Part shown: piece after piece, positions 43,912-46,097 of the stretch
How positions within the stretch are numbered: the first letter of the stretch is position 1
Layout of the letters: every line of letters begins with the position of its first letter
NCBI GenBank assembly: GCA_016207545.1
Contig: JACQPO010000140.1
Span: forward strand, 1-46,097
DNA: 46,097 nt
Source of the DNA: Methanobacteriota archaeon
GTDB taxonomy: Archaea; Thermoplasmatota; Thermoplasmata; RBG-16-68-12; EA-27
Reading direction: 5' to 3'
Program-made: the position numbers and the translations under genes
The notes under the pieces: generated by a model
What the model saw: the letters and a program-made list of their open reading frames with translations, nothing else
The model's database searches: none
What the model was told of the DNA's origin: nothing

Positions 43912-45899
43912 TGTGCTAAGCCGATAGGTCAGCGGTTAGAAGCTGCCTGGGGAATGGCTCGGCTCGGGCGCCGAAGACGGTCGTGCCAAGCTGCGATATG
44001 CGGCGGGTAGGCGCATGGAACCCGTGATCCGCCGATTGCCGAATGGGACCTCCTGCCCCTTTGGGGCGTTCCGTAAGGAACGGGAACCCCCGGAATTGAA
44101 GCATCCTAGTACGGGGAGGAATAGAAATCAACAGAGATGCCCTCAGTAAAGGCGATCGAAGAGGGCACAGGGCAAACCGAATCCGCCCCCGAGAGGGGGT
44201 AGAGATGTGGTGTTCGGACTCCGGCACGTCCTACCTCGCCAACCCGAAGTCCCCTGGAACGGGGCTCCAGAGAGGGTGACAGACCCGTAGGGGTACGCGA
44301 GGAGGACGATTCGGAGGATCCAGAGTAGCGTGCGTTGGAAATCGCGCGCGAACGTGGGTGGCATCTCCATCCAACCCTAAACACGACCCGAGTCCGATAG
44401 CGCAGTAGTAGCGTGAGTGAAAGCTGAAAAGTACCCTTGACGGGAGGTGAAAAGAGCCTGAAACCAGGTAGCCACAGGCCGATGGGGCGTGCAAGCGACG
44501 AACTCCGAAAGGAGGGAGCAGCGTCCCATCATCCGTTTTGAAAAACGGGCCAGGGAGTCCGGATGGACGGCGAGGTTAACCGCCACAAGCGGGAAGCCGT
44601 AGCGAAAGCGACAGGTCCGCAGCCCGCAAGGGCGAGGGACGTCGTGGACTCGCGAGGAGTCGTCTGTGAGGTACCCGAAGCCGGTCGATCTATGCCTGGG
44701 CAGGTCGAAGCCCTCCGAAAGGGGGGTGGAGGACCGACCCGATACTGATGTGCAAATCGTTCGGTTGACCTGGGCATAGGGGTGAAAGGCCAATCTAGGC
44801 CGGGAATGGCTGGTTCCCCTCGAAACTACCCGCAGGTAGATCTCGGTGGAGGACGGGCCGTGCGGTAGAGCGACGGATCGGGCATTTAGGCGGAGAAATC
44901 CGCCGGTGCCCTGTCAAACTCCGAACGTGCGGCCACCATAGAAACCGGGAGTCGGGCATCGGGGTAAGCTTGATGTCCGAAAGGGAAAGATCCTAGCGTG
45001 CGGTTAAGGTCCCTAAGTGCCGACTAAGTGCGACGAAAAGGGCGTTCGCGGTCTCAGACAACTGGGAGGTGGGCTTAGAAGCAGCCATCCTTTAAAGATA
45101 GCGTAACAGCTCACCAGCCGAGATCGCGGGCCCCGAAAAGGGACGGGGCTAAGTCGGTCACCGATACCGTACAGCACCGCAAGGTGATCTGGTAGAGGGG
45201 CGCCGTGCGTGGGGAGAAGCCGGGCCGTGAGGTCCGGTGGACCGCGCATGGATGCGGATCCTGGGAAGAGTAGCAGCAAAGTGGGGTGAGAATCCCCACC
45301 GCCGAAAGGGCCAGGGTTCCTCGGCAATGTTCGTCAGCCGAGGGTTAGTCGGTCCTAAGATGTCCCTTAACCGAGGACGTCGAAAGGGAAGCCGGTTAAT
45401 ATTCCGGCACCGCGCAAGTCCATGCCCATCGTGGGACGCATCGAGGCAGTCCGAGCGTGCTCGCCAGTACGTCCAAGCGTGGAACCCCGGGGAGAGCCGT
45501 CATGGTGAGAACCGGGAGAAAGCGCCAGTGGGAGGGGTGAAGGCCTCTCTTCGGACGATCCTTGGTGACCGTGAAAACCATGATGGGGTCAACTTGTGCG
45601 TCCGTACCTAGAACCGACACAGGTGCCCCTGGGTGAGAAGCCCAAGGCGGGTCGGCGACAATCCGGGCGAGGGAACTCGGCAAATTGGCCCCGTACCTTC
45701 GGAAGAAGGGGTGCCAGCCACGCGAGTGGCTGGTCGCAGTGACCGGGGCGCTCCGACTGTTTACTAAAAACACAGGTGGCCGCCAAATCGAAAGGTTGTG
45801 AACGGCCGCTGAAGCCTGCCCAGTACTGGTACCTGAAAGCCCGTTTCAACGGGAGGAAGGGCCAGTAAACGGCGGGGGTAACTATGACCCTCTTAAGGT
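43912..45899 (+). rRNA. rrl: 23S (LSU) rRNA gene, exon 1 (5' end to E. coli-equivalent U1931)
   Basis: Universally conserved LSU blocks appear in order: GGAUGGCUCGGCUCGGGCGCCGAAGA..., GAAUUGAAGCAUCCUAGUA, GGUAGAGCGACGGAU, AGCGUAACAGCUCACC, CUGUUUACUAAAAACACAGG, and GUAAACGGCGGGGGUAACUAUGACCCUCUUAAGGU (H69 region). The 5' boundary is approximate (+/-15 nt). No 16S lies upstream. Confidence 0.92.
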
Positions 45900-46097
45900 T
45901 CGATTCGCGAGCCTTAATAAAAATCGGCCATTTGCGGGGAAGTCCGTCGTATCCTGCGCTACTCGCCGCCAGATTGGCGGCAGTAACAACGCGCTAGGTG
46001 CGGATCATCCGCAGGGAAGGCCGACGTTGAATCGTCGGAACCCTCAGAGACTGTATGCCGATCACCGCGCACCAGCGGTGAAGATATAGTCCGACCC
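45900..46097 (+). ncRNA. Group I intron (5' ~200 nt; truncated by the window end) inserted in the 23S rRNA gene
   Basis: P1 pairs exon UUAAGGU (45893-45899) with GCCUUAA (45911-45917), with U45899-G45911 at the splice site. P3 pairs AUCGGC (45923-45928) with GCCGAU (46057-46062). P7 5' is GAGACU (46047-46052). The P8 hairpin is CACCGC-gcacca-GCGGUG (46063-46080). J8/7-P7 is AAGAUAUAGUC (46081-46091), matching the Tetrahymena intron core. Confidence 0.8.

Follow-up and report, generated by a model that had tools for sequence, protein, structure and literature searches.

Group I introns of archaeal rRNA genes were catalogued by Nawrocki, Jones and Eddy in 2018 (NAR 46:7970, PMC6125680); the compilation holds 39 introns and its title calls them 'widespread'. 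Position LSU/1931 is the commonest archaeal site, occupied by 17 of the 39, which are of IB4 type and include IB4.1 (281 nt, Thaumarchaeota), IB4.24 (248 nt, Micrarchaeota) and IB4.5. These LSU/1931 introns all come from metagenome-derived sequences. Introns of the same type are found at LSU/1923, for example IB4.7, IB4.17 and IB4.21, and the two sites, 8 nt apart, are both occupied by IB4 introns in the record KP308720.1. The hosts listed in 2018 are DPANN phyla, Thaumarchaeota, Aigarchaeota and three 'Euryarchaeota' records, namely IB4.14 (Podell13) and IA3.2 and IA3.3 (Baker16, the Hadesarchaea paper) (PMC6125680).

L1931 is a classic group I site elsewhere too: such introns occupy it in Thermotoga neapolitana, T. 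naphthophila and T. petrophila, Simkania negevensis, Synechococcus C1/C9, green-algal organelles and Acanthamoeba mitochondria (PMC1995217, which tabulates where the Thermotoga introns are inserted and how long they are). Nesbø and Doolittle 2003 describe the 23S rRNA introns of Thermotoga as active and self-splicing, to go by their title as cited in PMC6125680.

The window analysed here is a stretch of archaeal DNA of 46,097 nt, which ends inside an interrupted 23S rRNA gene. The interruption was originally predicted to be a group I intron at L1931, of a kind held to be rare in archaea. The covariance match, the 3' exons of relatives and the BHB scan, which are discussed in the following sections, all agree with a group I intron at this site; the rarity was overstated, given the 2018 catalogue. 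The window intron shares the domain of life, the host gene and the insertion site with the archaeal LSU/1931 IB4 introns, and its family falls in the same size class as those without an ORF (248-360 nt). In the archaeal IB4 introns, P7 has the 5' half GAGACUG, whose second base is bulged, and either UAGUCC or CAGUCC as its 3' half, in line with what is found here. The cyanobacterial L1931 introns likewise have no P2 and a complex P5 region (PMC1995217). In contrast, the bacterial and organellar L1931 introns measure 650-700 nt and carry a single-motif LAGLIDADG gene (PMC1995217), whereas the window family is ORF-less and archaeal.

Host gene and insertion site

The coordinates of the gene and of the intron elements are collected in Table 1. 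Conserved LSU sequence is colinear up to 45899, where the 5' exon ends in ...CUCUUAAGGU, and intron sequence replaces the rRNA from 45900 on. The 5' exon is 92.3% identical to the LSU rRNA of the closest relative, L002, and 89.7% identical to that of L017 (CAYNEM010000003.1). L007, a more distant relative, is intronless, and its uninterrupted junction reads CTCTTAAGGT followed directly by AGCGTAATACC. The T matching 45899 is nt 1929 of a 2902-nt E. coli rrl allele. The helix-69 uridines known as 1911, 1915 and 1917 are found at 1909, 1913 and 1915 in that allele, so the numbering is offset by +2 and the insertion site is L1931, a recorded rRNA intron site. The earlier assignment of the junction to E. 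coli U1931 is thereby upheld. We also note that L017 has a run of 100 N exactly at L1931.

Table 1. Positions of the 23S rRNA gene and of the intron elements in the window
Feature	Position	Strand	Remarks
Archaeal 23S (LSU) rRNA gene	43926-46097	+	Rfam RF02540, 1724.8 bits; cut by the window end
23S 5' exon	43926-45899	+	last base equivalent to E. coli U1931
P1 hairpin	45893-45917	+	exon UUAAGGU (45893-45899) with internal guide GCCUUAA (45911-45917)
Group I intron, first 198 nt	45900-46097	+	3' half of P1 to start of J7/9; cut by the window end
P3, 5' strand AUCGGC	45923-45928	+	pairs with 46057-46062
P4-P5-P5a-P5b domain	45933-46013	+	folding and RNAalifold
P4	45933-45938/46008-46013	+	
J4/5 GAA	45939-45941	+	
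P5	45942-45947/46000-46005	+	
P5a	45953-45959/45991-45998	+	
P5b	45960-45971/45975-45985	+	
A-rich internal loop ACAAC, P5a-P5b arm	45986-45990	+	
P6	46014-46016/46041-46043	+	Rfam alignment, RNAalifold
P6a hairpin	46021-46026/46033-46038	+	Rfam alignment, RNAalifold
P7, 5' strand GAGACUG	46047-46053	+	pairs with UAGUCC, 46087-46092
P3, 3' strand GCCGAU	46057-46062	+	forms P3/P7 pseudoknot
P8 hairpin CACCGC-GCACCA-GCGGUG	46063-46080	+	Rfam alignment, RNAalifold, comparison of four copies
J8/7 AAGAUA, P7 3' strand UAGUCC (46087-46092), GACCC toward P9	46081-46097	+	

Group I features of the insertion

The Rfam group I model RF00028 matches the whole window with 50.4 bits (E = 5.6e-10; gathering score 50), a match in which rRNA helix 69 is wrongly taken as P1. 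Limited to 45893-46097, and so without helix 69, the match is truncated at both ends and scores 44.7 bits (E = 1.3e-10), which is slightly below the gathering score. The covariance search proposed with the original prediction is thus significant in either form, and all coordinates and strings quoted there are present in the sequence. The full-length homologues score 71.4 (L021), 68.5 (L022) and 60.4 bits with the same model, and the L021 intron keeps 64.7 bits without helix 69.

The end of the exon and the internal guide form P1, in which the wobble pair U45899•G45911 sits at the 5' splice site. The helix is extended by pairing of 45900-45902 with 45908-45910. The resulting 10-bp hairpin (45893-45902/45908-45917) is the MFE fold, with -12.3 kcal/mol and z = -3.7, which bears out the P1, the wobble and the extension as originally drawn. 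L021 and L022 possess the same P1, but their loop and extension sequences differ. A P10 may form between CGC at 45906-45908 and GCG of the 3' exon. An A-rich joiner, UAAAA (45918-45922), leads from P1 straight into P3; therefore, P2 is absent.

Taken as a whole, the insertion is very likely the 5' portion (198 nt) of a compact group I intron of ~265-280 nt, very probably ORF-less, with the LSU architecture published as archaeal 'IB4' (no P2, extended P5 arm), located after U1931 of the 23S rRNA of a high-GC Thermoplasmata-type archaeon. The subgroup placement is based on site, architecture and P7 sequence rather than on the GISSD IB4 model; the lack of P2, together with a P7 and a site that agree with the published archaeal IB4 tables, is suggestive but not decisive, because P2 is also typically absent from IC2 and IA1 introns (PMC1995217).

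Catalytic core and peripheral helices

The core comprises P3-P4-P5-P6 and P7-P8, joined through the P3/P7 pseudoknot, with a bulged base in P7 and the J8/7 segment. Pairing and covariation were assessed on four intron copies, in effect three lineages and a thin basis for covariation, among which the catalytic core is invariant: the window copy, those of L021 and L022, which are independent JGI metagenome contigs, and that of L002. The P3 helix of the original prediction is conserved in all four, as its 6 pairs are kept throughout with a single change from A-U to G•U in L002. The P7 pairs are also kept in 4/4 copies, with A46048 bulged, and G46049-C46091 is presumed by analogy to be the guanosine-binding pair. 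The window shares the 5' half of P7 with the published archaeal IB4 introns, and its 3' half reads UAGUCC, against CAGUCC in L021. The segment 46081-46097 agrees with the Rfam consensus GAAGAUAUAGUC.

The reference ribozymes of the group I class are the LSU intron of Tetrahymena thermophila (IC1, L1925) and the tRNA-Ile intron of Azoarcus (IC3). The window intron shares with both the P1 U•G at the 5' splice site, the P3-P8 core with its P3/P7 pseudoknot, and the bulged base beside the G-binding pair in P7. The J8/7-P7 string AAGAUAUAGUC is also common to all three, in keeping with the Rfam consensus. The window intron differs from the reference ribozymes in subgroup, in the absence of P2/P2.1, in the P5 extension, in the P9 hairpins and in the insertion site.

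The P4-P5b domain folds with -40.7 kcal/mol (z = -3.7), and its architecture is shared by L021 and L002 despite different P5a/P5b sequences. The MFE fold of the P6/P6a region (46014-46043) has -14.3 kcal/mol. Among the hairpins called in the original prediction, 45965-45981 (the tip of P5b), 46021-46038 (P6a) and 46063-46080 (P8) are retained. The palindrome at 45999-46013 is no separate hairpin; it consists of the 3' strands of P5 and P4 (46000-46005 and 46008-46013), whose partners lie at 45942-45947 and 45933-45938, respectively.

Unguided RNAalifold of the four introns returns P4, P5, P5a, P5b, P6, P6a, P7, P8, P9, P9a and P9b. When P1, P3 and the P7 pseudoknot are included, the share of paired cells is 96.4%; sliding the partners lowers it to 34-44%. 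Five compensatory pairs are observed overall, three of them in P5a. The underlying MAFFT alignment (317 columns) misaligns the longer P5a/P5b arm of the window and the different P1 of L002, which yields 'unpaired' cells there; each sequence was therefore also folded separately.

Full-length relatives and the missing 3' end

L021 and L022 contain a homologous intron at the identical junction, with a contiguous 3' exon and coverage of the full model. The window intron is 82% identical to that of L021 (266 nt) and 78% identical to that of L022. Past P7, the L021 intron forms P9 (GCGA loop), P9a (GAAA loop) and P9b. Both introns end in ...AGAGGUG, whose terminal G stands directly before the 3' exon AGCGUAAUACC; the downstream 23S exon whose absence would have spoken against the original prediction thus directly follows the homologous introns of independent contigs. 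Judged against L021, the window copy lacks about 78 nt (P9, P9a, P9b and the terminal G), in accordance with the earlier view that the window ends inside the intron. The P9 region, terminal G, 3' splice site and 3' exon of the window copy are deduced from relatives of ~80% identity, and the sequence past 46097 would be expected to hold the P9/P9a/P9b hairpins and the terminal G, followed by AGCGUAAUACCUUGUCGCUUAAUUGGCGAC. Exact look-up of a neighbouring 203-aa protein for extension of the contig retrieved only one Logan contig of 2.2 kb, L001 (SRR12113385). This contig is from the same population, matches the window at 99.8% identity and breaks off after 8 nt of the 23S gene.

The window intron is not expected to carry a homing-endonuclease ORF, because the three full-length relatives (L021, L022 and L002) have introns of only 266-269 nt, which leave no room for one. 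A group I intron of ~700 nt, mobile and with such an ORF or a large insertion in the unseen P9, has precedents, since 21 of the 39 published archaeal introns have LAGLIDADG ORFs (PMC6125680) and bacterial L1931 introns usually do (PMC1995217); the contig break within the intron could likewise reflect an insertion polymorphism. The size of the relatives argues against it, as do the visible loops of the window copy: those of P1, P5b, P6a and P8 are closed and short, and P9 is the sole possible site left. We regard an endonuclease-bearing intron as quite improbable.

Proposed excision of the intron

We infer from its family that the window intron is self-splicing. In the proposed mechanism, P1 would form between the guide and the final seven bases of the exon. 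An exogenous guanosine, held at the G-C pair beside the bulged A of P7, would attack directly 3' of the wobble-paired U45899. The place of the guanosine would then be taken by the intron's terminal G, which is seen in the relatives only, and the freed 3'-OH of the exon would attack the 3' splice site. Ligation of ...CUCUUAAGGU to AGCGUAAUACC... would make the helix 69/70 region of the ribosome continuous again. The intron would be a selfish element whose own removal makes it tolerable. Lacking an endonuclease gene, it probably now passes on vertically or moves only rarely.

Excision by protein enzymes, in which EndA, the tRNA-splicing endonuclease, would cut out a BHB intron or a degenerate former group I intron and a ligase would do the joining, is very unlikely, although archaeal rRNA introns are usually of the BHB type, an origin of BHB introns from group I introns has been proposed (PMC6125680), and self-splicing of the window intron is itself a prediction. 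Both junctions of L021, L022 and L002 were scanned directly for a motif of helix, 3-nt bulge, 4-bp helix, 3-nt bulge and helix. No BHB motif fits these junctions: the best candidates reach 6, 6 and 5 of 10 pairs, and 500 shuffled controls have their mode at 5-6 of 10 as well. The finding that would have overturned the group I reading is accordingly not seen in the relatives. Moreover, the catalytic core is intact and conserved (P3/P7 pseudoknot, bulged P7 A, J8/7 AAGAUA, P1 U•G and, as seen in the relatives, terminal G), and compensatory changes in the peripheral helices combined with an intact core are unexpected in a decaying ribozyme.

Least probable of all is an assembly chimera at 45899/45900 between an archaeal 23S piece and a piece of another organism's group I intron, because, even though the feature lies at the extreme end of the contig and rRNA regions are frequent break points, as the end of L001 illustrates, the same exon-intron junction continues into the 3' exon on two independent metagenome contigs, the guide is exactly complementary to the adjacent exon, and a homologous intron interrupts the same rRNA helix region in the closest relative, L002.

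Group I introns at L1923 and L1931

The L002 intron is of the LSU/1923 type, inserted 8 nt upstream of L1931 and with a different guide. Its guide GGGGGU pairs with exon ACCCU, with the U•G at its own site, and is unrelated to GCCUUAA. The intron ends in ...AGCGUG, followed by CUUAAGGUAGCG. From P3 to the 3' strand of P7, its body shares 79-82% identity with the L1931 copies, and the fold is the same. Over the whole fragment, the window intron is 82% identical to L021 and 73.5% identical to L002. A discordance between intron and host was considered, but horizontal transfer is not claimed, as omission of the P1 region narrows the gap to 81% versus 79%. The intron core pattern was also sought in viral contigs, with no match.

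A single ORF-less lineage may have shifted between L1923 (L002) and L1931 (window, L021 and L022) in related soil Thermoplasmata with exchange of the P1 guide only, a tentative reading that we hold possible and, on balance, doubtful. Reverse splicing into rRNA, reverse transcription and recombination would be the best explanation of such a move, because no endonuclease gene is present. If true, it would represent natural retargeting of an archaeal guide sequence, in a host class from which group I introns had not been reported before. The L1931 copy, the L1923 copy and the intronless allele form a small, clean comparative set for study of the persistence and site change of ORF-less rRNA introns.

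Host and genomic neighbourhood

The genes next to the 23S locus are ordinary archaeal chromosomal genes, encoding an archaeal DnaG, AlaRS and a Lon-like ATPase, and the relatives of this DnaG are Thermoplasmata MAGs. The host is a high-GC soil archaeon of Thermoplasmata type. The 2018 list names no Thermoplasmata host, kinship with its introns being judged here from the published tables and not from their sequences, and a full-text literature search found no paper linking group I introns to Thermoplasmata hosts. The window intron therefore adds to a kind known since 2018, possibly in a new host class, and places soil Thermoplasmata-type archaea among the hosts of archaeal group I introns. The 2018 picture is unchanged, as archaeal group I introns, especially those of IB4 type at LSU/1931 and LSU/1923, were already known to be widespread. 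On the practical side, such introns break rRNA assemblies, as in the present contig, which ends within the intron, and can confuse rRNA-based binning and annotation. Further upstream in the window, a peak of GC and AT skew at 24-26 kb, considered as a possible oddity, corresponds to a TctA membrane-transporter gene on the minus strand.

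Insertion site and match to group I introns

LSU rRNA conservation in the 23S gene at the end of the window holds through ...GGGGGUAACUAUGACCCUCUUAAGGU, with 45899 as the last exon base. In the intronless gene of a more distant relative (L007), AGCGUAAUACC follows directly after that exon end; the window instead continues with unrelated sequence. The numbering was checked against the 2902-nt allele of the E. coli rrl gene, in which the junction T corresponds to nt 1929. The helix-69 uridines at pseudouridine positions 1911, 1915 and 1917 are found at 1909, 1913 and 1915 in this allele, and the insertion thus lies after canonical U1931. 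The observation behind the original prediction, a group I intron at L1931 of an archaeal 23S rRNA gene, is confirmed and its interpretation supported; all strings and coordinates it quoted are present in the window.

The proposed covariance-model check with RF00028 returned a 3'-truncated match at 45870-46097 with 50.4 bits (E = 5.6e-10; gathering score 50). Its start precedes the intron by 30 nt, and its score is raised by ~6 bits, because the Rfam model reads helix 69 of the exon (45870-45899) as its P1 and takes the true P1 for its P2. With helix 69 left out, the window fragment scores 44.7 bits.

Full-length introns in relatives

A 27-nt query from the guide/P3/P4 region matched two independent JGI metagenome contigs, L021 and L022, which carry complete introns of 266 nt each (2684-2949, and 2467-2202 on the minus strand) with a junction identical to that of the window. 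The predicted 3' exon was recovered in both, where the intron ends in ...AGAGGUG and continues at once into AGCGUAAUACCUUGUCGCUUAAUUGGCGAC. The introns of L021 and L022 share 82% and 78% identity, respectively, with the 198 nt in the window, and score 71.4 and 68.5 bits with RF00028 over the whole model (64.7 bits for L021 without helix 69). Comparison with L021 indicates that ~78 nt are absent from the window copy; the L021 stretch beyond it comprises P9 (GCGA loop), P9a (GAAA loop), P9b and the terminal G.

The closest LSU relative, L002 (VBMQ01000036.1), carries a homologous, ORF-less intron of 269 nt at 1879-2147 on the minus strand. Its site is L1923, 8 nt upstream of L1931, and the P1 guide alone is exchanged, with GGGGGU (exon ACCCU) in place of GCCUUAA. 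The intron body shares 79-82% identity with the L1931 copies, matching the similarity among L1931 copies across lineages. Sequence comparison of the three lineages fits a switch between L1923 and L1931 in a single intron lineage, possibly through retargeting of the guide.

In another relative, L017 (CAYNEM010000003.1), exactly 100 N (2926-3025) stand at the L1931 insertion point between ...CTCTTAAGGT and AGCGTAATACC..., flanked by ...AAGGU and AGCG... in an otherwise complete 23S gene. Possible causes of this run are an intron concealed by a scaffold gap, an intron polymorphism and masking.

Alternative explanations

An endonuclease ORF hidden in the P9 region beyond the window end is unlikely, as the introns of the three relatives are all ORF-less and, at 266-269 nt, leave no space for such a gene. 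An assembly chimera at 45899/45900 is very unlikely, given that independent contigs show the same junction, the guide is exactly complementary to the exon and L002 carries a homologous intron. A BHB intron, the competing type named with the original prediction, was rejected: a scan of the two junctions in each of the three full-length copies for the helix-bulge-helix-bulge-helix motif gave best fits of only 5-6 of 10 pairs, no better than the mode of shuffled controls.

Structure and proposed splicing

The group I fold is summarized together with selected genes in the table below.

Coordinates of the intron elements and of selected genes in the window
Feature	Position	Strand	Remark
Archaeal LSU rRNA (RF02540)	43926-46097	+	Rfam, 1724.8 bits; 3' part beyond window end
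P1	45893-45902 / 45908-45917	+	U45899•G45911 at splice site
Joiner	45918-45922	+	A-rich; no P2
P3	45923-28 / 46057-62	+	
P4	45933-38 / 46008-13	+	
P5	45942-47 / 46000-05	+	
P5a	45953-59 / 45991-98	+	
P5b	45960-71 / 45975-85	+	
P6	46014-16 / 46041-43	+	
P6a	46021-26 / 46033-38	+	
P7	46047-53 / 46087-92	+	A46048 bulged
P8	46063-68 / 46075-80	+	
J8/7	46081-86	+	AAGAUA
DnaG	40756-42030	minus	
TctA-family membrane transporter	24371-25909	minus	Adjoins hydantoinase/oxoprolinase A and B genes

RNAalifold on four copies returned P4 to P9b unaided, and 96.4% of cells pair in the full structure including the P3/P7 pseudoknot, against 34-44% with partners slid. The catalytic core is invariant across the copies compared. 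Compensatory change is seen at five pairs among the four copies, and covariation across the three independent lineages is modest. When the window, L021 and L002 sequences are folded singly, each yields the same P4-P5-P5a-P5b domain despite differing P5a/P5b sequences. The hairpin originally placed at 45999-46013 does not form a separate element; its strands belong to P5' and P4'. This segment, UGCGGAUCAUCCGCA, is a perfect palindrome built from those strands, and a local hairpin here could possibly compete with the long-range P4/P5 pairing as a folding trap.

By analogy with the group I family, P1 would present the U•G pair, and exogenous guanosine bound in P7 would cut after U45899. The terminal G would next occupy the site and the exons would be ligated, restoring the helix 69/70 region of 23S rRNA.

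Comparison with known introns

Nawrocki, Jones and Eddy reported 39 archaeal group I introns in 2018, 27 of them IB4-type; LSU/1931 accounts for 17 and LSU/1923 for 10, and several ORF-less copies measure 248-360 nt (PMC6125680). The window intron therefore adds a member to a known kind. Its family has P7 halves, GAGACUG and UAGUCC/CAGUCC, that are also tabulated for the published archaeal IB4 introns, and its putative IB4 label is based on site, architecture and P7 sequence. Introns of Thermotoga, Simkania, cyanobacteria and organelles also occupy L1931, and published descriptions of the cyanobacterial ones give no P2 and a complex P5, features that the window intron shares. The list of 39 names no Thermoplasmata host (PMC6125680), and a full-text literature search found no paper connecting group I introns with such hosts; the host is apparently the sole new element.

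Host genome and gene neighbourhood

The window (G+C ~67%) encodes archaeal DnaG, a Toprim protein, a Lon-like ATPase, AlaRS, hydantoinase A/B, TctA, an M50 peptidase and an RNA methyltransferase, which is ordinary archaeal chromosomal content. Among GTDB genomes, DnaG relatives occur in MAGs labelled Thermoplasmata or Methanomassiliicoccales, with 80% identity to the window protein for L017 and 78% for L002. Identity in the LSU 5' exon is 92.3% for L002, 89.7% for L017, 83.4% for L021 and 82.5% for L007. The order DnaG, Toprim protein, 203-aa protein, 23S is kept in L002, L017 and L007. No tRNA, 16S or 5S gene is present in the window, including the 44 kb upstream of the 23S gene (1-43925). 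rRNA genes are unlinked in Thermoplasmata, and the stand-alone 23S gene agrees with this arrangement.

The population of the window is also present in run SRR12113385, from which a 2173-nt Logan contig (L001) matches 41761-43933 with 5 mismatches. This contig breaks off after the first 8 nt of the 23S gene, and the rRNA gene is an assembly break point in that run too. The G+C peak of 0.74 and strong AT skew of 0.36 at 24000-26000 correspond to the TctA-family transporter gene and are ordinary.
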